A DNA stretch of 64,000 nt from a virus (IMGVR_UViG_3300031555_004309:33440-97439), one strand, 5' to 3'; shown: positions 1 through 62,606, counted from the stretch's first letter. The notes: a model not told the origin generated them from the sequence alone. Numbers and translations: made by a program.

Positions 1-843
1 AGTAATAGGAATAAGCGGAGAACCCATCGCATATGCAGAATAATAATCTCCCATTAATCTCGTCTCATTTTTATCATTCCACCAATAAGGCCAGGTCTCA
101 ATTTCTTTTCCTTTATATTCCCAAGTGGACGGTTTATAATTACCAGTTAAGAAGCAATCAATTTCATTCCCAATTTCTTTCTTAACTTTAATACTTTTTC
201 GCGCGGGCCGCTTACCAGGTTCATACTTACCATCTTTAATTTGAAGTACGACGCCTTCCCAACCTTTTTCTAAGCAATAGCCAATGTAATCAAGAAGTTC
301 ATCTCCTTCATAGTAGCGGGCGCGCACCAAGTAAGTAAACTTCATTCTTTCAAACACATTTTTAAACAAAGTAATTCTATCTACCATTTCAGTGTCCATT
401 AAATTTTTTCCACCGTAAGCTAAACAATCAAAAATATAATAATAAAGTTTTTCACCTTTTTCTTGACGTTCTATTGCTTTTGCGGGTAAACATCCCATTA
501 TAGTGGTAACTGCACGACTTTGTTCATTATTAGGAAAGAAAATTTCACCTATTAAACAAGTTCCATTAGGAAATTGAGAAAATTCTTCTTTTAAGTGAGG
601 AACAAGTTCAATTTTATTGAGATATCCACCTTTTGTGCTTTCAGTTCTACTACGAAGAAAAAGATTTCCATCATCATCTTTTAGCATCATAAACCAATGA
701 CCGTCGATTTTTCTTGCCGCGAAATAGTCACCACTTTTAACTGCATTATATACTAATTCTTTAAGGTTAAGACTCTTTGTAGGACTCCAATATTTTTCTG
801 GTGTCATATTTAAAAAATCATAGTTACCAATATATCCGTACAT
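1..843 (-). CDS. ATP-dependent DNA ligase (3' end runs off the window; missing from the ORF track)
   Basis: Manual translation from ATG at 843 (GAGG RBS upstream): MYGYIGNYDF...ARKIDGHW (KxDG adenylation motif), LIGEI, YYIFDCL, GWEGVVL, IKVKK, matching ligase motifs I, III, IIIa, IV and V. Confidence 0.85.
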   Translation of the reverse strand, partial: MYGYIGNYDFLNMTPEKYWSPTKSLNLKELVYNAVKSGDYFAARKIDGHWFMMLKDDDGNLFLRSRTESTKGGYLNKIELVPHLKEEFSQFPNGTCLIGEIFFPNNEQSRAVTTIMGCLPAKAIERQEKGEKLYYYIFDCLAYGGKNLMDTEMVDRITLFKNVFERMKFTYLVRARYYEGDELLDYIGYCLEKGWEGVVLQIKDGKYEPGKRPARKSIKVKKEIGNEIDCFLTGNYKPSTWEYKGKEIETWPYWWNDKNETRLMGDYYSAYAMGSPLIPIT

Positions 844-877
844 TACATTACCTCTTTTCTATTTTTATTCTAATTAT

Positions 878-906
878 ATTATACCACAAAAAAGAAAAAG
901 TGTCAA
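878..906 (-). promoter_or_regulatory. SigA-type promoter for the ligase
   Basis: TTGACA-17 nt-TATAAT with TG extension on the - strand. Confidence 0.85.
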
Positions 907-920
907 GAATTCTTGACACT
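890..920 (-). terminator. Intrinsic terminator overlapping the -35 of the ligase promoter
   Basis: Perfect palindrome AGTGTCAAGAATTCTTGACACT (899-920) followed by a U-rich tract on the - strand. Confidence 0.6.
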
Positions 921-1452
921 AATTCCACTTTTCTATTTCTTTTAAAAATTCTTCACTTTTTATACTTAATTCTTCTATTGTTCCATTGTTCCAAATCGTA
1001 TAATCATATTTTCCAGTATCAGTATTTAAATCTGCGGAATTAAAAAACTTCTCAATCCCATCTCTTTTTATCAAAAGAGTTCTTACAATAATTTTTCTTT
1101 TCTTGAATAACTCCACGAACTCTTTTATTTCCAATTGTTCTCTACAATGAATAAAAACAATACATTCTTTATCGCAAATTTCTTCATATAAATTAATATT
1201 TGCAATATCTTTCATTACTTCTTTAACAGGACCGTTATTATAACTCTTCCACGCTCGTTTTAAGTCTGCTAAAAAGGCGCGCCCAGCATTATCTTTCTCA
1301 CCTTTCCAGCCCATCGTAGTCGCAATCTCTTTCACACTTGTAATTGTAGAAAGATTCTTAATTTCATACTTATCCATACAATAAGTCCTTAACAAAGTAA
1401 CAAAAGTATCTTTACCTGCACCGCCAGCGCCATTAATAATTACAACTTTCAT
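919..1452 (-). CDS. P-loop nucleoside monophosphate kinase-like protein
   Basis: N-terminal GAGGAGKDT Walker A; C-terminal YDYTIWNNGTIEEL typical of phage dNMP kinases. Confidence 0.7.
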   Translation of the reverse strand: MKVVIINGAGGAGKDTFVTLLRTYCMDKYEIKNLSTITSVKEIATTMGWKGEKDNAGRAFLADLKRAWKSYNNGPVKEVMKDIANINLYEEICDKECIVFIHCREQLEIKEFVELFKKRKIIVRTLLIKRDGIEKFFNSADLNTDTGKYDYTIWNNGTIEELSIKSEEFLKEIEKWN

Positions 1453-2928: not shown

Positions 2929-2977
2929 ATACTTATACTTCTCCTTTTATTCATTTAATTTTTATATTTATAATTAA

Positions 2978-3051: not shown

Positions 3052-3088
3052 TATTATGTATGAATACAAAAAGTAAGGAGGGAATATA

Positions 3089-3295: not shown

Positions 3296-5211
3296 ACATC
3301 AACATTAAATTGAGCAAAAATTTCACAACCCAATACAATAAAATGCAACAAGAATATGGCGAGGAATTTGCTTATTTAAACGGTTTTGGTGATAAACAAT
3401 TATCGTTCACCGACTTTATCGATAATTTTATTGATGCTCAAACTGTTGCGGACGCGTCTGTTGATGGAAACGCAAATGTAGGTAATAAAGATATGAGGAC
3501 TTTGATGAATGAGATGCCGAAGCCTCATAGAAAATTACTTGCCTTTAACAAAATCCATTATGAATTGAATAAAAAATATGGATTTAAAACCGCAAATGAA
3601 TGGCTTCAAGCAGAATGGACAAAAGCGTTGTATATGCACGATGCAGATACTTCTACTTATATCCATTATTGTTTTGCTTATGACTTAAAAGATTTAGCAG
3701 AACAGGGCTTATATTTCTTAAATAATTTTAACCCAGAGCCGCCCAAGCATTTATCTACTTTTGTCGACTTCGTAAAAGAATTCATTTCTTTTGCAAGTAA
3801 TAGATCTTCTGGCGCAGTAGGACTTCCCAATCTTATTCCTTATATGTATTATTTTTGGAAAAAAGATTGCGAAAATGGATATGCGACAAAGAACTCTGAT
3901 TATTACGCCCGCCAACAAATTCAACGCTTTATATATGCAGTAAATCAACCTTATGTAAGAGATGGACTTCAAAGCGCTTTTACAAATGTAAGTGTTTATG
4001 ACAGTGAATACTTGGAAGCATTATTCGGTGGAAGTGTATTTCCTGATGGAAGTTTTATGGTAGATGAACTTGAAGAAATCAAAGAATTCCAAAAATTATT
4101 TATGGAAGTCGTATCTGATATTCGTTCTCATAATATGTTCACTTTCCCTGTCCTTACGATTTCTCTTTTAAGAAAAGATGGTGAATTTGCAGACAAAGAA
4201 TTTGCGGTTTGGGGCATTAAACATAATATGAAATGGAATGACTCGAATCTTTTCATTGATGATAGTGTTACAAGTCTTTCAAACTGTTGCAGATTAAAAA
4301 GTAATATTGAAGATTTAGGATATTTCAATTCTATTGGTGGAACCGCATTAAAAGTTGGTTCAGTAAAAGTTTCTACTGTTAATTTAGCAAGAATTGCTCT
4401 TGAAACAGACAATGAAGAAGATTATTTACTTAAACTCCAAAAAATGGTAGAATTAGATTGTAAGGTTCTTGATGTTGTTCGTCATATTATTGAAAGAAAT
4501 GTTGAGAAAGGACTTCTTCCAAACTTTTCAAAAGGTTTAGTTGACTTTGAACATTTATATAATACTATTGGTATTATTGGTATTTATGAAACTATGAAGA
4601 AATTTGACTATGTTAAAGTAGACGAATTTGGAAATTCTTATTACACAGAACAAGCAGATGCTTTTGGTAAGAAAATTTTTGAAGTAATCCATAAGACTAA
4701 AGATTACTTTGCTTTAGATAAAAACTATCAAATCAATATTGAGCAAATCCCAGGTGAGAGCGCCGCAGTAAAAATGCAGAAAGCAGATGTAATGTTATAT
4801 CCTGAAACTGCAATTACTGACCTTCCACTTTATGGAAATCAATTTATTCCACTCGGAATTAAAACAACTCTCCAAGAAAGAATTCGTATAGCAAGTCTTT
4901 TTGATAGTTATTGTAATGGCGGCTCCATCGCTCATATCAATATTGAGGCCCCATTCACAACCTTTGAACAAGCTTGGGATATGACAAATTATATTGCTGA
5001 CCAAGGTTTGACTTATTTTGCCTTTAATACTAAAATTCAAGCGTGTGAAAAGAATCACGCTTTTTACGGAGATAAGTGCCCAGTTTGCGGCGGCCCCGTA
5101 ACAACAGAATTTACGCGTATTGTAGGCTTCTATACTCCAATTAGAACTTGGTCAAAAGAAAGAAAAGAAGAATATTCAATGAGAGAATGGGAGAAAGTAA
5201 ATGAAACTTAA
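3292..5211 (+). CDS. nrdD: Class III anaerobic ribonucleotide reductase, no ATP-cone
   Basis: SNCCRL finger loop, C-terminal metal site (CEKNH...CPVC), RIVGF glycyl-radical loop. Confidence 0.95.
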   Translation: MNINIKLSKNFTTQYNKMQQEYGEEFAYLNGFGDKQLSFTDFIDNFIDAQTVADASVDGNANVGNKDMRTLMNEMPKPHRKLLAFNKIHYELNKKYGFKTANEWLQAEWTKALYMHDADTSTYIHYCFAYDLKDLAEQGLYFLNNFNPEPPKHLSTFVDFVKEFISFASNRSSGAVGLPNLIPYMYYFWKKDCENGYATKNSDYYARQQIQRFIYAVNQPYVRDGLQSAFTNVSVYDSEYLEALFGGSVFPDGSFMVDELEEIKEFQKLFMEVVSDIRSHNMFTFPVLTISLLRKDGEFADKEFAVWGIKHNMKWNDSNLFIDDSVTSLSNCCRLKSNIEDLGYFNSIGGTALKVGSVKVSTVNLARIALETDNEEDYLLKLQKMVELDCKVLDVVRHIIERNVEKGLLPNFSKGLVDFEHLYNTIGIIGIYETMKKFDYVKVDEFGNSYYTEQADAFGKKIFEVIHKTKDYFALDKNYQINIEQIPGESAAVKMQKADVMLYPETAITDLPLYGNQFIPLGIKTTLQERIRIASLFDSYCNGGSIAHINIEAPFTTFEQAWDMTNYIADQGLTYFAFNTKIQACEKNHAFYGDKCPVCGGPVTTEFTRIVGFYTPIRTWSKERKEEYSMREWEKVNET

Positions 5212-7068: not shown

Positions 7069-8937
7069 TTGGCAGATAATTATGGAATTAATGATATTGC
7101 CCATCTTGAAACAAGAGAAGCCATGAGAACAAGAATACAGATGTATCTCGGCTCAGATGATACAGATGGAATTTATCAAGCATTAAAAGAAATTATCAAT
7201 AATTCTACCGATGAGGCGCTTGCAGGTTATGGAGATAGAATAGAGATTATTGTTGATGAAAAAAATAATAATGTATCTGTTCGAGATTATGGCCGCGGCG
7301 TCCCATTTGGAATTAAAGACGGAAGAAACTACCTCGTTGCGATTTATACCGAAAGTCATACTGGAGGTAAATTTGATAAGGGAGTTTACAAAAATTCGTC
7401 GGGCCTCAATGGTATTGGTGGTACAGCAGTATGTATGTCTTCAAGATTTTTTATCGTTAGTTCAATTAGAGATGGTGTAGTTGCGACTGCACATTTTTCA
7501 AAAGGAAATCTTGAAAATTATAGTGAGAAATCAACGAAAGGTTTAGGAAAAGATTTTGAAAAAAATGGTACTTTAATAGATTTTGGTCCAGATCCCGAAG
7601 TCTTTAAGAATATGGAAGAAGGATTTTCTTTTGAAAGAATTTGTAAAGAGATAAAAAATATTTCTTATCTTAATAAGGGTATTCATTTTGTTATTAAAGA
7701 ATATCTTGGAGACGGAAAATTTGGTAAAAAAATAGAATACTATTCTAAAAATGGTATTGCCGACTTCATCACAGACAAAGTTCAAAACCCAATTATGAGT
7801 AAACCTATAATTGCTACTGCAAAAGATGATGAAGATGAAGTGGAAATTGCTTTTATGTGGAGTAAGGACGCTACTCAATCTTATGTATTTGTAAATGGTC
7901 TTTATTGCCCAGAAGGCGGCACCCCGATAACTGGCGCAAAAACAACTATTACTACTTCGATTAAAAGATTAAGTGGTAAAAGTTTCGATCCAGAATTAAT
8001 TAGAAAGGGACTTGTTTTTGCGATAAATTGTAAGGTATCAAATCCTTCTTTTGCAAATCAGACAAAAAGTAAAATAAATAACCCCAATCTTCGTACTCTT
8101 GCTTCGGCGGCCTTTAAAGAAGGTCTTGAAGAATTTGCCAAAACATCAGATTTTGACAAAATTATTGAAATTATGAAGAAAATGACAAAAGCCGAGGCGG
8201 CCGCAGATAAAGCAAGAGAAGCCGTTCTTAATCATACAAAAGAAATGAACGAGGCTGCGAAAGATAAATTCTTAATGATGGATAAATTAAAAGATGCGGA
8301 GTTCTTAGGAGAAAACGCAACTTTATTGATTGTAGAGGGTGACTCGGCTGCGGGCGCAATCATTCAAGGAAGAGATGTCGACTATTATGGACTTCTTCCA
8401 ATTCGTGGTAAGTGTATAAATGCAATGTCTAATCCAATTGAAGATGTTCTCGCTAATGCAGAAGTAAAAGCAATTTTAAAAGCATTAAATATAACTGCAA
8501 ATGGAACTTACAATCCAAAGAAATTAAGATATGGAAGACTTGGCATATGTGTCGATGCGGATGATGACGGCGCACACATAGCACTTCTTGTTACAACACT
8601 TATCTATACGCTCTGCCCGCAGTTTGTGCTTGATGGAAGACTTTATTGGTTGCAAGCCCCTCTCTATAAAGCAACAAGTGGTGGAAAAACAACTTATTAT
8701 TTTAATGATAAAGAAATGCCGAAAAATATTACGGGAGAAATCACTCGTTATAAAGGACTTGGTGAAATGAGTCCGCAAGATGTTGAAGTTTCTATGTTTG
8801 GTTCTGAACAGAGACTTCTTCAAATCGTACCAAGTGAAGAGGGTATTAAGAGATTAACTGAACTAATGGATAAAGATGTTGAGCCAAGAAAAGAATTTGT
8901 TTTCAATAATATAGATTTTAGTACAATAGAGGTATAA
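7069..8937 (+). CDS. gyrB: Type IIA topoisomerase/gyrase subunit B
   Basis: GHKL motifs (EIINNSTDE, DYGRGVP, HTGGKFD, GLNGIG); TOPRIM motifs EGDSA, PIRGK, DADDDG, RYKGLGEM. Confidence 0.95.
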   Translation: MADNYGINDIAHLETREAMRTRIQMYLGSDDTDGIYQALKEIINNSTDEALAGYGDRIEIIVDEKNNNVSVRDYGRGVPFGIKDGRNYLVAIYTESHTGGKFDKGVYKNSSGLNGIGGTAVCMSSRFFIVSSIRDGVVATAHFSKGNLENYSEKSTKGLGKDFEKNGTLIDFGPDPEVFKNMEEGFSFERICKEIKNISYLNKGIHFVIKEYLGDGKFGKKIEYYSKNGIADFITDKVQNPIMSKPIIATAKDDEDEVEIAFMWSKDATQSYVFVNGLYCPEGGTPITGAKTTITTSIKRLSGKSFDPELIRKGLVFAINCKVSNPSFANQTKSKINNPNLRTLASAAFKEGLEEFAKTSDFDKIIEIMKKMTKAEAAADKAREAVLNHTKEMNEAAKDKFLMMDKLKDAEFLGENATLLIVEGDSAAGAIIQGRDVDYYGLLPIRGKCINAMSNPIEDVLANAEVKAILKALNITANGTYNPKKLRYGRLGICVDADDDGAHIALLVTTLIYTLCPQFVLDGRLYWLQAPLYKATSGGKTTYYFNDKEMPKNITGEITRYKGLGEMSPQDVEVSMFGSEQRLLQIVPSEEGIKRLTELMDKDVEPRKEFVFNNIDFSTIEV

Positions 8938-9243
8938 ATGAAAAGAATTAAAAAATTTATTATGTGTTTAAAACAAAAACATTACTCAAAATATTATACT
9001 AAAAATTTGCCTCATAACTGTCACAGTTGTTATTATCGACATAGATGTTCATATCCAGTTCCAGGTTTTAATGAAGTTAATGGAAAAATCATTTGGAATG
9101 AATGTAAGCATTGGAAACCTGGAGGATGTTATAGTTGCCAAATGATATTAGAAAATGATGATGTTTGGTTTGAAAATAATTGTGAATGTGAGTGTTTTGG
9201 AGGTTGTAGCAAATGGAAATTACGAAAAGATTTCAACAAATAG
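8938..9243 (+). CDS. Cys-rich hypothetical protein inserted between gyrB and gyrA
   Basis: 101 aa, 11 Cys, GAGG RBS, overlaps the gyrA start. Confidence 0.6.
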   Translation: MKRIKKFIMCLKQKHYSKYYTKNLPHNCHSCYYRHRCSYPVPGFNEVNGKIIWNECKHWKPGGCYSCQMILENDDVWFENNCECECFGGCSKWKLRKDFNK

Positions 9244-11594
9244 ATTTAAAAGTAATGACAGAAGAAAATTTTATAATCTATGCTGGAATGGTCATTCAAA
9301 AAAGAGCATTAGTAGATGTTAGAGATTGTCTGAAGCCTTCTGCACGCGAATTAATGTATGCTCAATATATTGATAAAATAGATTGGAAGCATAAGTATCA
9401 AAAAAGTTTAAAATCTGTAGGTTCTGGCACATCTCATTTTTATGTTCATGGTGATACTTCTGCCTATGGCGTTCTTATACGAATGGGTAAGCCTTTTGTT
9501 ATGAGATATATGTTAGAAGATGTTAATGGTAATGCTGGTACTATGACAGCAAATGGTAATGAGGCATCTTCTCGTTATACTGAAATGAGGTTATCCCCTA
9601 TTTGTACTAATCTTTTTAATAGTATAGATAAAAATAGTGTCAAATTATGGTTCAACAATTATGATAATACGGAAATCTACCCTTCAGTATTTCCATCATT
9701 AGGATTTTATAATATCGTTAATGGAACTATGGGTATTGGTGTTGCATTAGCCTCTTCTATTCCTCAATTTAACTTGAAGGAAGTTAATGCGGCCCTGGTG
9801 ACACTTTTGAATAATCCCAATGCAAGTTTTGAGGAACTTTACTGCGCACCTGATTTTGCTACGGGCGCAATTCTGATAAATGAAGAAGAAGTAAAGGAAA
9901 GTTTAAAGAATGGACACGGTAAAGCGTGTAAATTAAGAGCGTGCATTGAATATAATGAGAAAGAGAATTGTTTAGTAGTTACTGAAATTCCATTTGGAGT
10001 TTATACAGATAATATCTGTATGCAAATTGCAGAAATGGTAAAGGAAAACCCAACTTGTGGTATTGATAAGTGTGTTGATAGGACGAAGACTTCTCCTGAA
10101 ATTAAGATTTTCTTAACTAAGCGCGCGAATGTACAGCAAGTGGTAAAAGAATTGTATGCAAATACAGACCTCCAATCTCATTATAGTATTAATATGACAA
10201 TGCTTGATAATGGTACAAGTCCTCGTGTCTTCACTTGGAAAGGAGCATTATCTGCACACTTAGCACACGAAAAAGAAGTTCTCACTCGTTCTCTTGAATA
10301 TGATAAGCAGAAGTATAGCGATAGATTAAATATTGTTGAAGGCCTCCTTATTGCTCTTGCTCGAATTGAGGAAGTAATTGCAGTTATCAAGAATTCCTTA
10401 GACGGCGCGAGCGCCAAGAAATCTCTTGTATCTAAATTTGGATTAAATGAAGAACAAGCGAAGGCTATTCTTGATATTAAATTAGTGAGATTAGCAAATC
10501 TTGAAACTGTTAAGGTTGAGAATGAGAAGAAAGAATTGATAAGTAAGATAGAAGAAATTAACACAATTTTATCTTCTCCTCTTAAACTGAATAAGATAAT
10601 TGAAGAAAAATTAAATGAGGTCGCTAAGAAATACGGAGATGCGCGCAGAACGCAAGTAATGAATCTTAATTTTGATGGGGAAGATGAAGAACCTATTGAA
10701 AAGAAAGAACTCATTGTCTATCTCTCAAATCGTGGTACACTTTATACAGAAGAAAAGTCTACTCTTCTCGTTCAAAGACGCGGTGGCAAGGGCACCCGCA
10801 TCAAAATGAATAAAGGCGAGTATGTTATTGACTCTATCGCAGACATAAACACTTCTGCGTGTTTGGCTTTTTCAAATAAAGGAAAAGTCTTCTCAATCGC
10901 ACTTTCAAAATTGCCAGAAAATGGAAAGATAAATTGTAGTGAGATTTTTGAACTTTCAGCAGGAGAAGAAATTGTTCGTATTCTTGCTTTTAACAAAATG
11001 TCTCAATATAACTCTATCTTGTTTACTACCAAGTGCGGCCTCGTCAAAAAATCCTCACTATCCGAATATAAATTCAGAAAGAGTAAAGGTATCATTGCCG
11101 TAAAACTTAAAGACGGAGATGAACTTGTCGGAATTCATTTTGCGAATAATGAGCCACTTGAATTCTTGACAAAAGAAGGAAAGTCTGTTATAATAGACAT
11201 AGAATCAGTAAATGCGACAGGAAGAGCAACTTCAGGAGTCTGCGGCATTAAGTTAAATGACGGAGACGAAGTCGTATGCACTCAGCTCATTCCCGATAAT
11301 ACAAAGTATATATTTACTGTTTCTAAAAATGGTATTGCGAAGAAAATTCCTTATAGTGAATGTTCTCTTGCTAATCGTGCGACTAAAGGCGTGTATATGC
11401 AGAAATTAAAAGATGATGATGAGATGGCTTATTTTCTTCCTCTTTCAAGTGAAGATAAAGAAATTACTCTCATTTCAAGTCTTAATACAATAAAAATTTC
11501 TCTTTCTCAAATTGTTGAGACGAGTAGAATGGCGCAAGGTGTATCTGCAAAGACTATGGGAGATAGAGAGAAGATTATAAAGGTGATTGTGTGA
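9213..11594 (+). CDS. gyrA: Type IIA topoisomerase/gyrase subunit A with beta-pinwheel CTD
   Basis: DCLKP, VHGD, catalytic SRYTE, PDFATG; QRRGGKG GyrA-box and CTD repeats. Confidence 0.95.
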   Translation: MEITKRFQQIDLKVMTEENFIIYAGMVIQKRALVDVRDCLKPSARELMYAQYIDKIDWKHKYQKSLKSVGSGTSHFYVHGDTSAYGVLIRMGKPFVMRYMLEDVNGNAGTMTANGNEASSRYTEMRLSPICTNLFNSIDKNSVKLWFNNYDNTEIYPSVFPSLGFYNIVNGTMGIGVALASSIPQFNLKEVNAALVTLLNNPNASFEELYCAPDFATGAILINEEEVKESLKNGHGKACKLRACIEYNEKENCLVVTEIPFGVYTDNICMQIAEMVKENPTCGIDKCVDRTKTSPEIKIFLTKRANVQQVVKELYANTDLQSHYSINMTMLDNGTSPRVFTWKGALSAHLAHEKEVLTRSLEYDKQKYSDRLNIVEGLLIALARIEEVIAVIKNSLDGASAKKSLVSKFGLNEEQAKAILDIKLVRLANLETVKVENEKKELISKIEEINTILSSPLKLNKIIEEKLNEVAKKYGDARRTQVMNLNFDGEDEEPIEKKELIVYLSNRGTLYTEEKSTLLVQRRGGKGTRIKMNKGEYVIDSIADINTSACLAFSNKGKVFSIALSKLPENGKINCSEIFELSAGEEIVRILAFNKMSQYNSILFTTKCGLVKKSSLSEYKFRKSKGIIAVKLKDGDELVGIHFANNEPLEFLTKEGKSVIIDIESVNATGRATSGVCGIKLNDGDEVVCTQLIPDNTKYIFTVSKNGIAKKIPYSECSLANRATKGVYMQKLKDDDEMAYFLPLSSEDKEITLISSLNTIKISLSQIVETSRMAQGVSAKTMGDREKIIKVIV
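11166..11194 (+). promoter_or_regulatory. Consensus SigA promoter embedded in gyrA
   Basis: TTGACA-17-TATAAT with TGn extension. Confidence 0.7.
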
Positions 11595-12880: not shown

Positions 12881-13798
12881 GTGAAATTAAAAATGGGTAT
12901 TAAAAATTGGACAGATGGCGCACTGAATGAAGTTACAATGGATGGAATTTTAAACGAAGTTAATCTTCAGTCTAACACAGATAAAAGTGGCCGCCCCGTA
13001 ATTTATGGAGATTATGTTATTAAGACAACAAACCATATTGGTGATAAAGAATTTGTTGCCGAAGTTCCGATTAGAGTTTATCAATCACAGTTAACTTCAA
13101 CTGGTAAGCCTAATCCCGCATATGACACTGCATCAAAAATTATGAAGGAATTTACATCTGTCGCGGCAGGTGGAGAAGAAAATGCAGATTATATTCGCAT
13201 TAGTTCTTCAGGTAAACTTTCAGAAAATACTTTTATTTCAAAGACAACAGGTCAACTTGTTAGTACACCTGTTATTAGAGCAAGTTTTGCTAATAAAATT
13301 AAGAAGTCTGATGCTCAAGACGGCGCAAGATTTAAGACAATTATTGTTATAGGTAAAATTACGCCTGAACTTTCAAGAGATGGTGTTGAAACTGGTCGTC
13401 TTATTATAAAAGGTATTCTTCCTGTTTGGGGCGGTAAGGTTGAACTTATTGACTATATTGTCGAGAATCCTAATGTTGCAAAGCATATTGAAGGTAATTG
13501 GCAGGAAGGCGATACAGTTATGATTGGTGGTTATATTAACTTTGTTTCAAAGACAATTGAAACAGAAGAACCTAGTGGTTTTGGTGAACCTATCGTAACT
13601 CGTAGAACTATCTCTGTTAAGGAACTCATCATTACTGGTGGTCATGATGCTCCTCTTACAGAAGAAGAGGGCGCCTATGATAATGAAGCAATTGGAGTTG
13701 CTTTAAATGAGAGAAAGGCTAGAATGGATGAAAAGGTAAAGGCTGCGGCTCAGGCTGCAACTACATCTAAGCCAGCTTCTAATGGATTTGGATTTTAA
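12881..13798 (+). CDS. Probable single-stranded DNA-binding protein (SPbeta YorF-like position)
   Basis: OB-like beta-rich repeats, C-terminal Phe tail, directly upstream of the Sak4-like ATPase. Confidence 0.55.
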   Translation: MKLKMGIKNWTDGALNEVTMDGILNEVNLQSNTDKSGRPVIYGDYVIKTTNHIGDKEFVAEVPIRVYQSQLTSTGKPNPAYDTASKIMKEFTSVAAGGEENADYIRISSSGKLSENTFISKTTGQLVSTPVIRASFANKIKKSDAQDGARFKTIIVIGKITPELSRDGVETGRLIIKGILPVWGGKVELIDYIVENPNVAKHIEGNWQEGDTVMIGGYINFVSKTIETEEPSGFGEPIVTRRTISVKELIITGGHDAPLTEEEGAYDNEAIGVALNERKARMDEKVKAAAQAATTSKPASNGFGF

Positions 13799-13813: not shown

Positions 13814-14800
13814 ATGATTGACCTTCTAAACTTAGAGCCTACTAGAATTAGTAGGAATTTAAGAGGTAAGTATATGTTGTTTTACGGCTTACCAAAAGTC
13901 GGTAAAACAACTTTACTATCCAAATTCCCTAAATCTCTTATTCTTGAATTTGAAACAGGTACAAATGCTCTTAATAATGCTTATGTGCAACCTATTCAAA
14001 AGTGGACAGATGCAAAAGCGGTCTTAAGAGACCTTCGTAAAGATGACGTTAAAGAAAAATTTTACACAGTTTGTGTAGATACTGCAGATGTAGCATGGTC
14101 GCTTTGTGAAAAATATATATGTCAGCAAAATCAAGTTCAAAACTTGGGAGACATTCCTTGGGGCAAAGGATATGCACTTTGTAAACAAGAATATGAAGAT
14201 TTCTTCCGTGAAATAGCGATGCTAGGTTATGGTGTTATCTTTACTTCTCATAGTGCAGAAAAAAATATGAAGGACGAAAAGGGAAATGATTACATTTCTC
14301 TTGCGCCCGCCCTACCACAAAGACCATATGATATAGTTAATAAAATGGTGGATATTATTGGTTATATCCGTAGCATTAAAAACTATGATACAGGTGAGCA
14401 GAAAACTTTCTTATTTTTACGTGGAGACGATAGATTTGTAGCTGGTTCAAGATTTAAATATATTGAACCCCGTATTGAATTTAGTTATGAAGCACTTTCA
14501 AATGCGATTTATAATGCAGTTGACCAACAAGTCCAAGCAGATGGAACTGGTGCAGCGAGTGAAGAATATAATTCATTTTATAATACTTCAGAAGGACGTA
14601 CTTTTGAACAAATTAAAGATGAAGCAATTCAACTTTGGGACGATTTAGTTGTAAAACCTCAAAGTGAAGAAATGGCACAGAAAATTTCTTTCATTATAGA
14701 AAAGATTTTCGGTAAGAAAATGAAGCTTAGTGAGATAACTGAATCTCAAAAAGATTTGTTTGAGTTAGTTGTTTCTGAAATGAGGGAATTACAGAAATAA
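13814..14800 (+). CDS. Sak4/AAA_24-family ATPase (YorG-like recombinase)
   Basis: YGLPKVGKTT Walker A, VCVDT Walker B, FTSH, AGSRF. Confidence 0.8.
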   Translation: MIDLLNLEPTRISRNLRGKYMLFYGLPKVGKTTLLSKFPKSLILEFETGTNALNNAYVQPIQKWTDAKAVLRDLRKDDVKEKFYTVCVDTADVAWSLCEKYICQQNQVQNLGDIPWGKGYALCKQEYEDFFREIAMLGYGVIFTSHSAEKNMKDEKGNDYISLAPALPQRPYDIVNKMVDIIGYIRSIKNYDTGEQKTFLFLRGDDRFVAGSRFKYIEPRIEFSYEALSNAIYNAVDQQVQADGTGAASEEYNSFYNTSEGRTFEQIKDEAIQLWDDLVVKPQSEEMAQKISFIIEKIFGKKMKLSEITESQKDLFELVVSEMRELQK

Positions 14801-21064: not shown

Positions 21065-21325
21065 ATGTGTACATTTGGCGTTTATATAGTATATGAGCAT
21101 ACAAATTATCAGCATTTTTATTATGGAAGACAAGATGTTGGCACTTTTTATGTAGAAACAAAATATTTTGATGATTTAAGAGAATTTATGAAATTTGCAA
21201 CAGATTTCAAAAAAGAAGTAATTGATGAAATAGTATTTTTTGATGAAGAAGAGGCTAATCAAGTTGCAGTAGAGCGTACATTGGAAAAACTAAAAAGGGT
21301 TCAATTAAAAAAGGAGGAAGAATAA
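21065..21325 (+). CDS. Hypothetical protein
   Basis: AGGAG RBS; translationally coupled to the next gene. Confidence 0.65.
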   Translation: MCTFGVYIVYEHTNYQHFYYGRQDVGTFYVETKYFDDLREFMKFATDFKKEVIDEIVFFDEEEANQVAVERTLEKLKRVQLKKEEE

Positions 21326-34617: not shown

Positions 34618-34757
34618 TATATTTTCCTCCTTTTTTTTTGGATTTTCTCTTCCAATTTATAAGTAATTTTTTGGATAAAAAATTCCAAAAAATAATGCGC
34701 TTTGTCAAACTCAAATATTTGAGTTGACGGCGCGCAACGAGGTAGAAAAGAAGATAT

Positions 34758-47400: not shown

Positions 47401-48032
47401 ATTGTAATACAACCACGAAGTTGTTGAGCAAACTTGTTTATTGCTGCCGCCTGAGCATTAAAAGTTTCTTGAGAAATATCTCCGCCTGCGAGCTTATTCT
47501 TTAGTTCTCCTAAAAGATAATCTTGACCTGATTTTAAACCAGCATAATCTCCTGCTTGCGCCGCCGCAATCATTTTTGGCGCAGTTTTATCTATTCTACC
47601 AAGAATCTGAGAACCTTTTACTCTTTCAATGGAGAAATTCCCCATTTTATCTTGCATTCCCTTAATTTTTTCGCTATATTCATCAAATACCTCTAATAAA
47701 TCTTTTACAGATTGAATATTACTTGCAAGATATTTATCAGTAAGTTCAAATCCCTTTAATTTTCCTTCCCATTGAGAAAGTTCAGTTGCAATATCTTTTA
47801 TACTATGCTCAAATGCAGCCAATTGCTTTGGAGTAGAACCACTACCAGGGATGTTGCTCATAACTTTTTTAAGTCTATTTTCAATATCCTGCAAGCCTTT
47901 AGAAGAACTTTCAAATAATTTATCACCAAGTTTTTCTTTTGACAAATCATTCTTAATCTTCTGAATTCCACTCATAATATCATTAGCATCTAATTTTCCG
48001 ACTAAAGAGAATTCAACTTGATTTTTCGGCAT
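41469..48032 (-). CDS. Tape measure protein
   Basis: 2187 aa helical protein, TP901-type core (LGTALKTIVARF, AGSRQQSRF), TM segments. Confidence 0.92.
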   Translation of the reverse strand: MPKNQVEFSLVGKLDANDIMSGIQKIKNDLSKEKLGDKLFESSSKGLQDIENRLKKVMSNIPGSGSTPKQLAAFEHSIKDIATELSQWEGKLKGFELTDKYLASNIQSVKDLLEVFDEYSEKIKGMQDKMGNFSIERVKGSQILGRIDKTAPKMIAAAQAGDYAGLKSGQDYLLGELKNKLAGGDISQETFNAQAAAINKFAQQLRGCITIMKQYQQQADAANTDVEKGFEEARQAAEQNRGTVVNSANEQIEKLIGIGDAAKQGSQGLQELSEREKSIQNLTNRIKYLFSATSVFSVLRRVVRGAVKDFQELDKEFNEIAIVSRYSTAEMWQSFSQVNQMAQEYGVTTKNILEVQNLYYHQGKDMAEVNKLTAQTLTLAKITGMDYADATNKLTAALNAYKLTAEDAVRVTDTVAALSANAATSSEELMTALTKTASIAANAGVSLENTEVFLTKMIETTREAPENLGTALKTIVARFGEVKNAIDENGEAIEQADINKVDKALKTVGITLLDTSGQMRDLDDVFMELSSKWDGLDRNTQRYIATMAAGSRQQSRFIAMMENYDRTLELVDVAQNSAGTGARQLAKAQESIETSLNRLKSAWQEFYSGIITSGAIKWFIELGNSIVGIFNKINKIPAIGPYISLIVGGLGLWATKTFIVDKALEKLGATIATNIGLKEKDNAVSLKSRIIQNGEIVSFKKLIHTELTEWATKKALSDENVLYILKQKGVDLSNKNTSISFKVLAAAELEAYGPLLLIIAAMAVLVAAGYGILKLWEKEHKVITDNSEALDELSKKYDEYQNQVQKTKALKDNLNILEKYKDMLVLTTEQQEELKNAQQSIAEDYPTLLNYIDEEGNYHLRNADAIALELENQKKLNKEKRNAYISKNKELVNQGIYGEDFASFEQAQNRLNYLSQSLNLSSKSSKEQANKITKDIIGYGKIVESLKIAGEHLATVGTLGAASPLVVQGGVSAYRNEQLRKMLEGYLSGTKKSFMTQDLNTVFGAGASINEQQFKKFRDLAANQDLTDFKTFSKTLSESNIQATSQHQLETWYNNYMQIVEKIPEIGDMITKGYSQVEAAWEQTLNVSLSEIDFEFSVTAESKEKFAKAFAKAFTDDENFTEEDFLRYMEGLDEETYNKIFNKILSSEKLELGEIFGKALTPESLATSDLDKIMSSYLKELDINKNSPEYQAYKQSLIDAFTFTKDELNAIQNVILLDGETIEGYTLEQIKAMQQTAAKLQEVYGKDAGQKYLTIKQNIQNGIKDINDFEKAINALNTADVSDLEGIEKFVKQMKQLNVSTKVTSQTIVDLAGGLDELPLENTADIATYCKNNIDSLKDSVEALNAASEGTATAEQMQQILNILIEGLDFKESIEMIHNFNNALTYTSKGIGLNSTLLQKAQVDLATGEKTTTEVILTLLDARIKKRRQELALMTDGTEKEKAEAEILSMELNKTLITMSANTIKQEIDHAVDPALEKMKEKMDRIKEAWQNFVDYLNNVDKYSNLDALLDRIKDKIDNLEFEISFSTNPKEIAKDLKSQLNEIQRQMAGNIAGKRGAERNLLARRNAINSNSQTKDYLSFGAEGNIIIDQQKMLALEEQIRDAKIKNNEVTLAVLEGQKKAIEDNVKAYNDELKAVQKYTKGVQDSLDKTQNINKEIYENVIELENKLIDVIQKKEDKELELTKKKYDAIKEEDNKYLDSVRKMIDKERALREQKNDEDAVRDKERKLAMMKMDTSGIYSSEIRALEKELKQDYQDLSDKAVDRMVDQLEEENNARAEAMDKDVYYTETTLERKRELMTDYYEEIKQLDTDLVTWFMNNDEEYLKASKAQKELLKQQYAELVGNGEASKEVLQDGSITSVQQAITLAQESATDLDEAIKLYGDNAKVTNEGVQSSVSELAGEYSNLVNIIDGNGDSLVSAYNNLREAIKKAAEAARDLKDAQEKAANFSTDNVKDQNPSKNTTSTLSPYTKTSLRPITVKDKNGNINYANKEAGWYHESGSGIVEIDGTKYYRIRSRFQEFNDSPRYAKESDFYGKNEGEIESGNGSLNKLAKSETEIFTLEEISQIIAGQNKYNTPKMLTNAKGGLVDFTGPTWVDGTKANPEAFLSAADTANIAKLRDILSIAFDSTAPTYPNSQSTSNATYNITIEVDSIASDYDVDQAVSHLQSKIQQASGYRNINILKKSK

Positions 48033-49043: not shown

Positions 49044-50078
49044 TTATGAACGGTTCTTAGGTTTAACCTGAGGTGCAGCAGTAGCATTTGTTGTAACAAC
49101 GCCATCTGTATCAGTTTCTGCGCCACTAGCATAAGTAACTCTCTTTGATTCAGGAAGTACTTCTTCAGCATTAGTTGAAGATTTTGTAGGTGGATTCTTT
49201 GAGAAGCCATCATATGCAGGAACAAAGTTCATTTGTCCACCAGCAATACTGTCATCTTCATCATCGTCATAATCAGCAAATTCATACTTAACAAATCTAA
49301 CCATTTCGCCGTCTTCAGGACGAAGAACTTGAAGGTTAAAGTTAAATGTAGCAGGATCACCATCTGCGCTCATTTCAAGAGTTTGTTCAGCAGTCATCTT
49401 TGCTTTAGGAATAATGAACTGGAAGTATTCATCATCGCCATTTCTTTCATTCTTAATCATTGTATCACCGACAACATAATATGTGCCAGGGAATGAATCA
49501 GGTTCAATCTTAATGATTGCCTTAGATTTTACAAGATGATTCCAAGTTGCATAAAGAACATCGCCTTCTTTAAGACCTTGTGCAGTTGTTAAAGCAGTTG
49601 TGCTACCATTCTTATAGAAAAGAATGTTTGTAGCTGTATCTCCTGCAGTGCCATAAGAAACAGAAACTTCTTTACCAAGGCCATTAACTACTTTACCATC
49701 AACTTTTACTTCAGGATAAGTGTTATTTTCTTTTACAACTACTCTTGCACTCTTAAGTACTGTACCAAATTCTGTAGTACCACTTGCGGCAGTATCACCA
49801 TATACATTACCATCACCGAGCATAACTGCGAGTGATTTTGGAGAGAAGAGAGCATCTTCAATAGTAACATTGATTTCCTTGTTGAAATCCCATACAATTA
49901 ACTTGCCATTACCTTTACCGCCGCGGGCTTCAGAAGTCTCTGCGGTCTGTTCGATGGAAGTAACTTTCAAACTATCAAGAATAAGAACAGGATAGTCGGG
50001 ATAACCAGCTTTGTTGATGTGGTAGAATGTTACGTCGGCACATTCTTTAAGACCATATCTTTGAAGTATATCAGCCAT
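49044..50078 (-). CDS. Major tail tube protein with C-terminal extension
   Basis: Synteny, codon bias of a highly expressed gene, ARGGKGN and GDPATF motifs. Confidence 0.8.
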   Translation of the reverse strand: MADILQRYGLKECADVTFYHINKAGYPDYPVLILDSLKVTSIEQTAETSEARGGKGNGKLIVWDFNKEINVTIEDALFSPKSLAVMLGDGNVYGDTAASGTTEFGTVLKSARVVVKENNTYPEVKVDGKVVNGLGKEVSVSYGTAGDTATNILFYKNGSTTALTTAQGLKEGDVLYATWNHLVKSKAIIKIEPDSFPGTYYVVGDTMIKNERNGDDEYFQFIIPKAKMTAEQTLEMSADGDPATFNFNLQVLRPEDGEMVRFVKYEFADYDDDEDDSIAGGQMNFVPAYDGFSKNPPTKSSTNAEEVLPESKRVTYASGAETDTDGVVTTNATAAPQVKPKNRS

Positions 50079-55493: not shown

Positions 55494-56762
55494 TTAATCT
55501 TCTTCTTTAAAATACTTAGCCATAAGCGCGGCCGCACCAGAATAAGAAGGTTTACCTTCTACATCTTTTAAGACCTCTTTTGTGGCTTTGTTGAATAATG
55601 TGTCTTCATTTGCATTAACAACTGCTAATGCAATTTCACTCTTTAAACTGTCAAGAGTGTAAGTGTCAATGTTCTCTTTAAATTCTTCTGTCTTTTCTTG
55701 GGGAAGAACTTCTGCGTACTTATCAATCAAATCTGATTTTTGAGCTTTTTCCTGCTCAAGTTTGTAGGTTTGAAGTTCTTCAACTTGTGCTTCGAGTTCT
55801 TTGATTCTAGCTTGTGCTTCGACATACTTGGACTCGAAATCTTCAGTAGTTTCGTTTTCTTCGCCTTCTGCGCCGTCTTCAGTTTCAACTTCTGTTTCTT
55901 CAGTTTCAGTTACTTCTTCAGCTTCTTCTACCTCTTCAACTTCTTCTGTCTCTGCTGGCACATCCTCAGCTTCAGTTTCAGTTTCTTCAGTTTCTTCTGT
56001 TTCTAACTCATTTTCAGTAGCAACTTCTTCAACTGTTTCAACTGTTTCCTCTGCTTCTGGGGCATCTGCTTCATTCTCAACTACAGGTTCTTCTTGCACT
56101 TGTTCAATTTTTTCTTCATCCATTGTTTCCGTGCCTCCTATAATCTCATTTGTTGCAGAGAAATTATAATTCTTTAATTCTTTAATAAGATTAGTTGCAT
56201 CTGTTAAGTTGTAGAATGCCGCACCCTCAAAACAAGGTTCTACATCTTGTCCTAATGCAGTTAATCCTAAAAAACAACCATCTGTGAATTCGAAATACTC
56301 AACTGCGCCATCTCTTTTCCATTCACCTTTTGCACTATCAACGCAAAGTTCCATTGATTGTGCCTTTCCTGGCAGTGCACGCGCAGCTTCGTATCTTGCT
56401 GTCCATAAGAAAATATCACAGCACGCATAATTTCTCAAAACTCCATCTTTATCAAGATGATCTTCCCATTGGACATTAGGATTTTCAGGAACTACGCCAT
56501 AAGCAACAAATTGCTCTCTGTCAAGTCCGTGGTCAGTGAAGTCTTTGTTTTCCTGGTCCCAAATCCCACCAACAGGTGAATAAGGAAGAGTAGATAATAA
56601 TTTATCTGCAAACTCCTTCGTAATATAAGTGAGATTTCTGTTCAGACCAGTATAAAAAATTCTTACCCTCGCCTTTGATAAAGTTGGATTTATTTTCTGA
56701 ACATCTCCTACAGGAGAGATTGAAAACGTAATTCGACTATTTAATTCTCTTTCCATTATCAT
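55494..56762 (-). CDS. Prohead protease fused to an acidic scaffold (YonD-like)
   Basis: NRN, QSMEL, LG..VEPCF protease motifs; long Glu-rich tract and coiled coil. Confidence 0.75.
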   Translation of the reverse strand: MIMERELNSRITFSISPVGDVQKINPTLSKARVRIFYTGLNRNLTYITKEFADKLLSTLPYSPVGGIWDQENKDFTDHGLDREQFVAYGVVPENPNVQWEDHLDKDGVLRNYACCDIFLWTARYEAARALPGKAQSMELCVDSAKGEWKRDGAVEYFEFTDGCFLGLTALGQDVEPCFEGAAFYNLTDATNLIKELKNYNFSATNEIIGGTETMDEEKIEQVQEEPVVENEADAPEAEETVETVEEVATENELETEETEETETEAEDVPAETEEVEEVEEAEEVTETEETEVETEDGAEGEENETTEDFESKYVEAQARIKELEAQVEELQTYKLEQEKAQKSDLIDKYAEVLPQEKTEEFKENIDTYTLDSLKSEIALAVVNANEDTLFNKATKEVLKDVEGKPSYSGAAALMAKYFKEED

Positions 56763-60114: not shown

Positions 60115-61049
60115 ACACCTGCCTCCTCGTCGAAGTCATCATCATATCCTTCAGCGTCAAAGTCATCAAGTTCTTCTTCGTCAGGAATAGCAAGTATAGA
60201 TTCTTCCATAGCATCTGCTGCTTTAAGCGCTTCAATTCTTCTATCAACATCTTCGCCAATACCAGTCTCATTCTTATATAAATTACGAATCCAAGTTTGT
60301 ACATCTTTCATTACTGTATCAACTTGGTCTCTCGGCGTGTCATCATAAAAGTCATTTAACCAACCTAACTTTTCACAATATGCAAAAACTTCGCCAAAAG
60401 AATCAAAATCATTCGCATTTTTAATATTCTTTTCTGTTAGGCCGGCAGATTTACGGATTGTATCATAAGACTTTATTAATTTATCAAAATCTTCTCCGCC
60501 ACGAATTCTATTTTCAATAAGAAGTTTGATTTTACACAATTGTTTTGCATCATCTGCTTGAAGTTTACTATTAATATTTTGAGTTTGAAGAATTCCTTGA
60601 TAAAGATCTTCTAAATATGCGATTTCTTTGTCAAGATATTCTTCTCCCCATTTCTCTCTTAACTTCTCCATATCTGCATCCTTAAGAATAGAAAAAGCAT
60701 TTCGTAAATTTCCTTGAGCCAGCAACCCTTTATACTCTTCATTCATTTCTCTCCAATCTATCATTGGATAATTTTCAGTAAGAGTGGTATTTACGTAAGT
60801 CGATAGTGCCGCAGACCCATTAGCAGTCGAATACTCAATCCATCTATCAGGAATAAAAGGAATATCTAACCATCTACATAATTTATCTACAAAGTCTAAA
60901 CTTCCATCATTCTCATCAATCATATCTTCTAAACATTCAATACAAATAGGAGTTTTATTTTGAGGAAAGAACAAACTTCTTGCAGGCAAAAATTCACTCG
61001 CAATTTTATCCTTTCCACATTTTTCACAAGTGTAAAATAATCCACTCAT
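60111..61049 (-). CDS. Zn-finger protein preceding the terminase (YonG-like, candidate small subunit)
   Basis: CEKC...CIEC, acidic tail, coupled to terL. Confidence 0.55.
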   Translation of the reverse strand: MSGLFYTCEKCGKDKIASEFLPARSLFFPQNKTPICIECLEDMIDENDGSLDFVDKLCRWLDIPFIPDRWIEYSTANGSAALSTYVNTTLTENYPMIDWREMNEEYKGLLAQGNLRNAFSILKDADMEKLREKWGEEYLDKEIAYLEDLYQGILQTQNINSKLQADDAKQLCKIKLLIENRIRGGEDFDKLIKSYDTIRKSAGLTEKNIKNANDFDSFGEVFAYCEKLGWLNDFYDDTPRDQVDTVMKDVQTWIRNLYKNETGIGEDVDRRIEALKAADAMEESILAIPDEEELDDFDAEGYDDDFDEEAGV

Positions 61050-61375
61050 TCTTCATCATCTCGATTTTCTGTCGGATTATGAGAATCGGTTGGCGGCGCG
61101 CACTTCATACGAAGTCTAGTTATCTTATCCAACCATTTCTTCAATTCTCTCCTATTTTCTCTATTCAACTTATTCCAAGCTAATACAATATCACTCTTCA
61201 TTCCATCATAATCTGTTCTAGGAGTAAATTTTGGAACTGTTACCATTTCTCCAGTTTCTTTATTTTCAACTTCTGCATCACTTATATCACAATATCTCAC
61301 ACCTAATATTCTCATTAATTCCCAAAGTTCTCTAGTTTCCAAATACCCTAATTGTTCATACAAATCTATTTTCAT
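61046..61375 (-). CDS. Hypothetical protein
   Basis: Coupled ORF. Confidence 0.65.
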   Translation of the reverse strand: MKIDLYEQLGYLETRELWELMRILGVRYCDISDAEVENKETGEMVTVPKFTPRTDYDGMKSDIVLAWNKLNRENRRELKKWLDKITRLRMKCAPPTDSHNPTENRDDEE

Positions 61376-61379
61376 TCTC

Positions 61380-62606
61380 TCACTCCTTTTTCTTTTCTAT
61401 TCTCTTTAATCTCTCGCAATTTTTACAAATAGATGCATATCCATCTGCATTACGAGATCTCTTAGAAAAATCTCTTTCATCTACTAATTTCCATTCTCCA
61501 CATTTTCCACATTTTTTCCACTTATTCAAAATCTCTCTATTCATATAATAGTCAAAACGTAGTTGCGCGAAGTCTGCAATCTCCTTACAAATATGTTGTT
61601 TGTAAATAGTAGAAATATAATTTGGAGAGTGCGTTGTATTAAAATTTTTATGAAGATAGTCCGCAATATACTCATTACTCTTTTTTTCTATCTTCAATTT
61701 TAATATTTCTTTTTGGACTTCTGTCAATCCGCAATTTTCTTCATACCATTTCAAAGTCTCAAGAATATTTCCAAGTACAGATTCAGGATTTTTATCTGCT
61801 TCTTCTTCTAAATCCATATAATTCTCATAAAGAGTATATATGTGTAAAGGATCGCAAAAGTTAAGAATTGTAGTTGCGGCCGCATTAGGTTGGTAGTCGA
61901 TTTCTACTAAGTTGCGCGGGTCCTCAAATCTCATTTTATTTGAAGGATATGTCCCCATTGGTCTAATATCGAAATCACTTCCAACTTCTTCCCACGGCAC
62001 TTCTTCTCCAACTTCATAAAAAGACTGAGTTACGTTAGTTTTTGTTCTACAAATAACGGGTTTCACACTATCTTTAAGAGTGAATTGTTGACGGCGCAAC
62101 TCTACCAGAAGATGAGAATATTCATATAATTCTCTATCTGTAAGTTTACGAACAGAGTCGTCTTTAATTTTACCTTTATTTACGTCTACTAAGTAGGCAA
62201 CCTTATCTATCTGCTCCCATAACTCCTTCATACCAGGGACGTCCGCATCTTTTTCTCTATCAATAGTAGGTTTTGGATGTTTGTATTTGAGTTCATTATG
62301 TGAAAATGCGCGCTCATCGAAAGTAGGACTTTCGAGAAGAGCTTCGAGACTTTCGGGTTCTTTTCGTTTATAAGTGTTATGTTTTGTTTGGATTTGGATC
62401 TCTTTGCGGTCAACCGCAGAGGTTCCGTCTTCGTCTTTTCCGAATAAAATATAGTTTGCGATAGTTTCTAATTCTTTCTGTGTATAGTGAGTTCCATAAG
62501 GGTCTAAGTATTTATTTACGAATTCTGTACGTTCTGCGGCAGTTTCAAGGGTAAAATCTAATTTTAACATTGAAAGTAGCCTCCTATTTAGTTGCGGCCG
62601 AGTCAA
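61380..62606 (-). CDS. Putative transcription regulator with sigma-region-4-like HTH and C-terminal Zn finger
   Basis: LTEVQKEILKLKIEKKSNEYIADYL HTH; CGKC...CKNC; start codon uncertain. Confidence 0.6.
   Translation of the reverse strand: MTRPQLNRRLLSMLKLDFTLETAAERTEFVNKYLDPYGTHYTQKELETIANYILFGKDEDGTSAVDRKEIQIQTKHNTYKRKEPESLEALLESPTFDERAFSHNELKYKHPKPTIDREKDADVPGMKELWEQIDKVAYLVDVNKGKIKDDSVRKLTDRELYEYSHLLVELRRQQFTLKDSVKPVICRTKTNVTQSFYEVGEEVPWEEVGSDFDIRPMGTYPSNKMRFEDPRNLVEIDYQPNAAATTILNFCDPLHIYTLYENYMDLEEEADKNPESVLGNILETLKWYEENCGLTEVQKEILKLKIEKKSNEYIADYLHKNFNTTHSPNYISTIYKQHICKEIADFAQLRFDYYMNREILNKWKKCGKCGEWKLVDERDFSKRSRNADGYASICKNCERLKRIEKKKE

Follow-up and report, generated by a model that had tools for sequence, protein, structure and literature searches.

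The window analyzed here is a 64,000-nucleotide (nt) stretch, bases 33,440–97,439 of the 97,439–base pair (bp) IMG/VR phage contig IMGVR_UViG_3300031555_004309 (G000; about 78% complete). It is AT rich (a G+C content of 33.5%, compared to 33.9% for the whole contig) and contains a large excess of the hexamer GCGCGC, which is the subject of this work. The window carries genes for NrdD, GyrB, GyrA, a DnaB-like helicase, RecJ, PhoH, ClpP, dUTPase, and a RuvC-like resolvase, as well as for RNase H, ligase, terminase, portal, and long tail proteins. Its replicase is a DnaE-type DNA polymerase III (Pol III) alpha subunit with 39% identity to SPbeta YorL. Two DNA methyltransferases (MTases) are encoded by adjacent genes (21325–22715) within the replication module. 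The original prediction, made from the sequence alone, explained the GCGCGC excess by either a HIP1-like iterated motif maintained by methylation-linked repair or binding sites for a phage protein. Positions are given in window coordinates unless the contig is named.

GCGCGC sites and their expected number

By exact search, GCGCGC occurs 33 times in the window; the count for the entire contig is 51. All 31 coordinates originally listed by eye are exact, and two more sites exist, at 48373 and at 24156, the latter overlapping the site at 24154. Only the site at 34730 lies outside open reading frames (ORFs). About 1.4 sites per strand are expected from mononucleotide or dinucleotide frequencies; the G+C content is 33.5% rather than the ~32% given in the original prediction. 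Related words are frequent, as had been claimed: GGCGC, GCGCC, GCCGC, and GCGGC occur 39, 45, 57, and 47 times, respectively, compared to ~8.5 expected, and GCGGCCGC was found at 8197, 11976, 55528, and 61876, the same four positions as reported earlier. In the contig, GCGCGC sites are distributed over the three reading frames (8, 18, and 22 sites, plus 3 intergenic sites). They force minority codons (CGC accounts for 10% of Arg codons; GCG and GCC account for 19 and 10% of Ala codons).

When both strands were considered, 66 occurrences of GCGCGC were observed compared to 2.8, 2.9, 18.6, 32.9, and 55.5 expected under Markov models of orders 0 to 4. The increase of the expectation with model order shows that the signal sits in shorter words (GCG/CGC/GCGC). 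The top hexamer under the order-3 and order-4 models was a different one, TAATGC/GCATTA (96 compared to 50 to 61 on both strands), which was mildly enriched under codon shuffle (61 compared to 47; 56 compared to 43).

As the main null, we used a per-gene shuffle of synonymous codons, which keeps the amino acid sequence and codon usage (200 shuffles). There were 48 genic GCGCGC sites compared to 6.9 ± 2.5 in shuffled genes (z = 16.6), with a maximum of 15 in any shuffle. The excess thus withstands the codon-preserving shuffle that the original prediction had proposed as the test that could overturn it and is a nonrandom, DNA-level feature. When the shuffle was restricted to 20-codon windows, which mixes poorly, still only 28 ± 3 sites were obtained; therefore, regional variation in G+C content is not the cause. 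A dinucleotide-preserving codon shuffle gave an expectation of 35.1 sites but mixed poorly and was not relied on.

G/C runs and their sequence context

Below, S stands for G/C and W for A/T; S6 are G/C-only hexamers, and in SS_SS contexts, all four flanking bases are G/C. The enrichment extends to G/C-only words as a class. In total, 530 G/C-only 6-mers were observed compared to 187 under the codon shuffle (a 2.8-fold excess), and more than 20 G/C-only hexamer classes were enriched 2- to 6.5-fold; with GCGCGC set aside, more than 20 such hexamers still showed a 2- to 4.6-fold excess. Unbroken G/C runs of 8, 9, and at least 10 nt occurred 44, 17, and 23 times compared to 11.9, 4.2, and 3.4 expected, an excess of about sevenfold for the longest class. 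Altogether, 87 runs are 8 nt or longer; they consist of adjacent Gly, Ala, Arg, and Pro codons with G/C in third positions, and the final codon of a run is typically GCA. Clustering of these amino acids was rejected as the cause, since their adjacent pairs were as frequent as expected (1057 compared to 1045 ± 25).

The choice of the silent base depends on its neighbors. At fourfold-degenerate sites, the G/C fraction was 0.17, 0.18, and 0.21 when one, two, or three of the four flanking bases were G/C and rose to 0.43 when all four were. With the context extended, the fraction was 0.28 in WSS_SSW, increased to ~0.50 when one more flanking base was S, and reached 0.70 in SSS_SSS. For Arg, CGN was used in 92% of cases in SS_SS contexts compared to 32% in WW_WW contexts. 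C and G increased equally at G/C-flanked fourfold sites, and the context ratio did not differ among the three genome modules (left arm, replication, and structural). Intergenic DNA clumps as well (26 compared to 6.3 in a small sample). The dependence of the third position on flanking bases holds with amino acids and codon usage fixed and is thus a context-dependent synonymous-site bias. A CpG-specific effect was rejected because third-position G/C also rises where no CpG is formed.

We next used a shuffle that holds both the amino acids and the exact S/W string. Under this null, 36.1 ± 4.1 GCGCGC sites were expected compared to the 48 observed (1.33-fold). About three quarters of GCGCGC sites are therefore obtained from G/C clumping alone.

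No consensus longer than a hexamer was found, as no 7-mer or 8-mer stands out: the top 7-mers (at most 22 copies) and the top 8-mers (at most 13 copies) are diverse. The spacing of runs of at least 7 nt is exponential, as for random placement (coefficient of variation of 0.97; Kolmogorov-Smirnov P = 0.99), and regular spacing was rejected. Close pairs of runs were no more frequent than by chance (23 compared to 22), which led us to reject local hairpins. Exponential spacing and the lack of excess close pairs indicate that the runs form neither arrays nor local hairpins. In predicted mRNA folding, native windows exceed codon-shuffled ones in stability by only 2.9 kcal/mol per 300 nt, which is compatible with a by-product. 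When SS_SS sites of the polymerase gene were compared with their orthologs in 12 relatives, G/C status in G000 and in the relatives was not significantly associated [odds ratio (OR) of 1.9, P = 0.08; 1.26 elsewhere].

Table 1. GCGCGC sites, long G/C-only runs, and selected genes in the window (window coordinates).
Feature	Position	Strand	Basis or remark
GCGCGC	320, 1277, 2401, 2660, 6895, 10121, 10641, 15000, 18833, 19105, 20223	.	exact search
GCGCGC	20523, 20964, 24062, 24154, 24156, 26556, 27436, 28269, 28690, 29465, 29780	.	exact search
GCGCGC	30492, 31139, 34730, 38374, 48373, 50193, 50671, 51434, 59733, 61096, 62308	.	exact search
12-nt G/C-only run	200..211		encodes K-R-P-A-R on − strand
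10-nt G/C-only run with GCGCGC	316..325		
12-nt G/C-only run (C-G-G-P)	5087..5098		nrdD
10-nt G/C-only run	7291..7300		gyrB
10-nt G/C-only run	12989..12998		
10-nt G/C-only run	14303..14312		
10-nt G/C-only run	16752..16761		
11-nt G/C-only run with GCGCGC	18828..18838		
10-nt G/C-only run with GCGCGC	20960..20969		
13-nt G/C-only run	25998..26010		DnaE-type polymerase gene; longest in the window
12-nt G/C-only run with GCGCGC	30491..30502		dUTPase gene
10-nt G/C-only run	47558..47567		2187–amino acid tail gene
11-nt G/C-only run	49918..49928		
10-nt G/C-only run with GCGGCCGC	55526..55535		
10-nt G/C-only run with GCGCGC	61092..61101		
gyrB and gyrA	7069..11594	+	Pfam
Amino (N6A/N4C) DNA MTase, CcrM-like	21325..22026	+	PF01555, 3e-21; NCBIfam, PHROG
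Second DNA MTase	22026..22715	+	phrog_799; weak match, Alw26I-type adenine MTase
DnaE-type Pol III alpha replicase	23185..27153	+	Pfam; marker for gathering relatives

Two further genes of the window were noted. Directly after the ClpP-like protease gene, a 323–amino acid protein (28989–29960, + strand) contains a GIY-YIG homing endonuclease domain in its C-terminal third. A 408–amino acid protein (61380–62606, − strand) matches a phage sigma factor family (phrog_5767, 9e-29), and its C-terminal ~45 residues show weak similarity to the region of Lar and endonuclease VII that binds zinc.

Spelling of the runs and comparison with known motifs

Under a codon-aware null, short palindromes are depleted: CCGG (15 observed and 50 expected; a ratio of 0.30), CATG (48 and 152; 0.32), CTAG (51 and 144; 0.35), GATC (91 and 227; 0.40), ACGT (60 and 148; 0.41), and AGCT (114 and 221; 0.52). 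Seventeen six-base palindromes are depleted as well, e.g., TCTAGA (1 compared to 16.9), ACATGT (1 compared to 9), and AACGTT (3 compared to 18). The only enriched palindromes are G/C-only ones. The contrast drawn in the original prediction between the GCGCGC excess and the usual avoidance of palindromes by phages is thus real. These deficits, which for many 6-bp palindromes and the tetramers lie at 0.06 to 0.5 of expectation, resemble phage restriction-site avoidance. Such avoidance concerns only the spelling filter and cannot create the excess of G/C-only palindromes.

Under the S/W-preserving shuffle, CCGG was observed 15 times compared to 52.7 expected, and words with at least four consecutive C (or G) were depleted. 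The GCGCGC surplus beyond the S/W pattern is balanced by these deficits of CCGG and C/G homopolymer words. Third-position G/C was increased in all four contexts defined by the second codon position and the first base of the next codon, except those that create CCC or GGG.

HIP1 (GCGATCGC) and the alternate highly iterated palindromes (HIPs) of cyanobacteria are, like the words found here, GC-rich palindromes present far above expectation; they occur in all frames and in intergenic regions, force minority codons, and differ between lineages (Elhai 2015, PMC4390886). In each genome, however, a single HIP word dominates; it has a cognate orphan MTase, to which the HIP model links such words, and shows biased 1-nt deviations, which, for HIP1, Elhai took as support for methylation-dependent mismatch repair (PMC4390886). 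In the phage, the whole G/C-only class is enriched, and the S/W pattern alone predicts nearly as many GCGCGC sites as are present. A search of the contig for a C5-MTase and Vsr was negative. Both MTases of the window are amino-MTases, and no link between them and the G/C words was found in the 10-kb DnaE flanks (partial loci) of relatives: they are absent there from 72 of 74 clumping relatives, GCGC-rich ones included. Deamination of GCGC would yield GTGC and GCAC, which show hardly any depletion (a ratio of 0.90 for GTGC+GCAC); hexamers one such change away from GCGCGC are in excess (1.49 for GTGCGC+GCGCAC and 1.77 for GCGTGC+GCACGC). Neither a single word nor a repair signature of the HIP kind was therefore detected.

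Chi sites and Chi-rich phages are also similar in that short GC-rich words are over-represented in AT-rich genomes and use rare codons. Chi is a single asymmetric, orientation-dependent word, whereas the leading words in the phage are many, palindromic or about equal in number to their reverse complements, with no single dominant or longer word. Z-DNA–forming (CG)n tracts were rejected since the nonalternating words GCGGCC, GCCCGC, CGCCCG, and CGGCCG are more enriched (4.4- to 4.6-fold) than CGCGCG (3.7-fold). Context-dependent codon bias and neighbor-dependent substitution are similar in that the third position depends on its neighbors once amino acids and codon usage are controlled for and in that the effect acts at the codon junction. 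Unlike ordinary context bias, the effect in the phage is cooperative over at least 7 nt (from 0.17 to 0.70), is confined to all-G/C contexts, is restricted to a family, and is much larger than in T4, SPbeta, and sampled bacterial genomes.

Relatives, candidate hosts, and possible sources of the proposed G/C-run pressure

Relatives were gathered by an alignment-based scan, which yielded 80 IMG/VR loci around polymerase homologs of 38 to 72% identity; among cultured phages, no match to 8 kb was found by megablast. Most of the 80 loci clump likewise, about 75 relatives altogether, with S6 observed/expected ratios of typically 1.5 to 4.9 and SS_SS G/C two- to threefold above baseline. For the pooled family [1.37 million base pairs (Mb)], the ratios were 2.0 for S6 and 3.8 for S9, and the ORs were 2.55 for SS_SS and 5.3 for SSS_SSS; in the same comparison, G000 had an S6 ratio of 3.2 and ORs of 3.5 and 10.4. 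No clumping was observed in T4 (OR of 1.05), SPbeta (0.75), or pooled low-GC Bacilli and Clostridia loci, and unrelated phages with related lysins had S6 ratios of 0.7 to 1.3. A group of gut phages with 44% GC showed a weaker context effect (OR of 1.7 to 1.9). The trait is thus heritable in a large uncultured family of AT-rich gut/rumen phages sharing a DnaE-type replicase and is not a property of AT-rich DNA generally.

The words used by relatives differ. G005 (IMGVR_UViG_3300021400_000027), a complete genome of 179,787 bp with direct terminal repeats, contains zero GCGCGC; it avoids GCGC, CGCG, GGCC, and GATC, whereas GCCGCC, GCCGGC, and CCGGCG are abundant. Among the other relatives, some favor CCCGCC, or CGGCGC and GGCGCC, and a few (L128, L101, L113, L069, and L088) are GCGCGC rich like G000. 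Avoided palindromes also vary: in L007 and the whole of G005, GATC is found 0 to 2 times compared to about 42 to 215 expected. Together with the exponential spacing and the lack of positional conservation, this use of other words leaves the originally proposed discrete binding sites for a phage protein without support.

Several relatives have features of their own. In G005, ORFs of at least 600 nt sum to 57 kb in the standard code and to 118 kb when TAG is taken as a sense codon. Only ~57% of the genome is covered by standard ORF calling, yet the polymerase gene has an open frame without any recoding. This genome looks TAG recoded. In L009 and L010 (10001–13864), the DnaE-type homolog is open for ~1000 codons and is followed by 11 in-frame stops of all three kinds, which suggests an insertion (an intron or a homing endonuclease cassette) or a frame change in the polymerase gene. 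A near relative is L143 (IMGVR_UViG_3300031993_004209; also metagenome contig Ga0310696_10005671, L172), a 15-kb sequence from another sample that is 92 to 95% identical over 9.1 kb to contig bases 27.4 to 37.7 kb, with a 98% identical lysin; it clumps likewise (S6 ratio of 2.4). A third strain, L173, is 2 kb long.

Several features bear on the host. The contig left end (contig bases 32–1764 and 6542–7021) contains 18 tRNA genes, many of them for A/U-ending codons (Ser-UGA, Arg-UCU, Val-UAC, Leu-UAG, Lys-UUU, and Ala-UGC), a set that fits a host of higher G+C content than the phage. Between nrdD/nrdG and gyrB, the window encodes a 402–amino acid protein (5736–6944, + strand) that ends in a type I dockerin domain (E value of 1e-4, just at the Pfam cutoff), which hints at a Clostridia host with cellulosomes or amylosomes. 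Together with lysin relatives in rumen/gut Clostridia metagenome-assembled genomes (MAGs), this protein points to an anaerobic gut or rumen Firmicute as the host. The best full-length genome match of the lysin is a Candidatus Fimenecus MAG, which has 1714 GCGCGC in 2.0 Mb and enriched GCGC, with GATC strongly depleted in a 141-kb sample (17 compared to 335) and CATG, ACGT, AGCT, and CTAG depleted in a 6.8-kb locus. This MAG strongly avoids GGCC (91 compared to 412), while the phage does not (62 compared to 69); it is therefore not a clean host match, and host identification through the lysin was ambiguous. In four candidate host-clade MAGs, the S6 ratio was 0.85 to 1.15, with ORs of 1.2 to 1.9. 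The original prediction had allowed that the enrichment might simply mirror the host genome; these MAGs do not match the phage.

The context rule, the filters on spelling, the family distribution, and the lack of site conservation are all observed, and GCGCGC seems not to be a recognition site in its own right. We consider it likely that a pressure acting on the DNA itself favors G/C runs, that restriction avoidance filters them, and that GCGCGC is the spelling that results most often. In this reading, adjacent Gly, Ala, Arg, or Pro codons already have G/C at their first and second positions, and the silent third position is set to G/C as well; the choice of CGN over AGR for Arg is likewise pushed to G/C in such contexts. 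The effect is cooperative, with the preference growing with the length of the G/C context. Two filters, avoidance of CCGG-containing words and avoidance of GGG/CCC trimers, then set the spelling. Since Ala (GCN) and Arg (CGN) are common in G/C contexts, permitted runs read as GCGC-type words with GCGCGC at the top, and each lineage spells its runs according to which palindromes it must avoid. The pressure may come from a mutation bias of the replisome, from repair that is biased, or from selection for stable clamps that gyrase or nucleases would read.

The direction of change was estimated in two ways. Between G000 and the 95%-identical L143 (9.1 kb, 460 mismatches, unpolarized), S↔W divergence was 0.157 at SS_SS fourfold sites and 0.123 elsewhere. 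The calculated ratio is about 0.7 for purely slowed loss and about 2.4 for purely faster gain; the observed value lies between them and thus does not choose between slower loss of G/C and faster gain. Singletons polarized by majority rule in four clusters of near-identical family loci showed more frequent W>S changes in SS_SS contexts (48 of 315 compared to 415 of 4216 elsewhere; OR of 1.65, P = 0.004) and somewhat fewer S>W changes (31 of 151, or 0.205, compared to 225 of 844, or 0.267; OR of 0.71, P = 0.13). The result leans toward a bias that, through selection or through repair, also promotes G/C gains and does more than protect G/C from decay.

We propose tentatively that the driver is not a reader of specific sequences but a bias of fixation or repair that depends on how stable the duplex is locally. 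Enrichment correlates with nearest-neighbor stacking energy (rho = −0.82, P = 5e-8, for 29 word classes without CCGG), and GCGCGC is both the most stable hexamer duplex and the most enriched one. Several points weigh against the reading of GCGCGC as a spelling of G/C-run pressure. The correlation with stacking energy is confounded with plain avoidance of GG/CC steps. The intergenic sample is small and may hold terminators or small genes. The substitution analysis is low powered and heterogeneous, with one cluster driving the W>S signal and cluster A showing none, and the polarization of singletons by majority rule is imperfect. Last, two Clostridia MAGs show a weaker form of the context effect (OR of 1.7 to 1.9), and the MAGs represent candidate clades that may not be those of the true host, which leaves room for a host-imposed process.

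A pure neighbor-dependent mutation bias without selection, in which G/C-to-A/T decay would be reduced inside G/C runs so that AT drift spares them, is possible but rather unlikely. It could originate from the phage replicase/repair set or from stable G:C contexts being shielded from deamination and breathing-dependent damage. The trait does follow a family with its own DnaE-type replicase, RecJ, UvrD-like helicase, ligase, and RNase H, the effect is equally strong in all modules and involves C and G alike, runs are randomly placed at nonconserved positions, and S>W change per site is lower in SS_SS contexts. Yet this drop is small, the accompanying rise in W>S is not predicted by simple protection, and the ~10-fold shift of equilibrium odds in SSS_SSS is large for a context effect.

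Also unlikely is the view that stretches of 7 nt or more made up of G and C alone are selected, spelling-independent “duplex-stability clamps” across the family, read by physics or a conserved factor. Such clamps would be, for example, barriers to supercoiling-driven melting under phage gyrase or brakes for helicase-nucleases. Decidedly unlikely is a protein that reads G/C-only runs as degenerate recognition or barrier elements, selected where the protein sequence makes them cheap; candidates are phage gyrase, a packaging or recombination factor, and a Chi-like host helicase-nuclease. Known Chi sites of low-GC Firmicutes are short GC-rich words, and the phage encodes both GyrB and GyrA. Increased G/C gains in run contexts, dependence on contiguous run length, and preference for the most stable spellings also speak for such a reader. 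Against it stand the lack of a consensus beyond composition, the lack of the strand orientation of Chi among leading words that are palindromic, spacing without interference, nonconserved orthologous positions, and spellings that differ between close lineages.

That the pattern mirrors host oligonucleotide usage or the mutation/repair environment of the host seems improbable. The GCGCGC-rich Fimenecus MAG has several avoided palindromes in common with the phage, the two Clostridia MAGs and the 44%-GC gut phages show the weaker effect, and avoided palindromes differ between lineages, as expected if hosts impose them. However, that MAG differs from the phage in GGCC avoidance, the S6 ratios of the four MAGs are far below the 3.2 of the phage, unrelated phages with related lysins do not clump, and clumping is common to relatives with different avoidance profiles and thus presumably different hosts. 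A HIP1-like palindrome made and kept by methylation-dependent mismatch repair is extremely improbable and largely refuted as a single-word model: a GC-rich palindrome in great excess under codon-aware nulls and two MTases in the replication module would suit it, but more than 20 hexamers are enriched, one-off deamination products persist, and relatives with the same trait lack the MTases in their sampled flanks.

A literature search for a description of this trait found none. The present analysis contributes a context rule in quantitative form, a null that preserves the S/W pattern, a ranking of words by stability, negative methylation-repair tests, and a first look at substitution direction. 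Palindromes over-represented in AT-rich phages should be tested against an S/W-preserving null before being called HIP-like or Chi-like. With G/C-run pressure as the preferred reading, an apparent motif becomes a measurable rule, whereby silent sites switch cooperatively to G/C and the ranking of words follows duplex stability. If mutational, the rule is an unusually strong context signature of phage replication and repair and would bias k-mer–based host prediction and selection tests. If selective, it represents an unrecognized, spelling-independent DNA element, and if the clamp reading is true, the runs of this phage family would constitute a new kind of genomic signal that is compositional rather than sequence specific.

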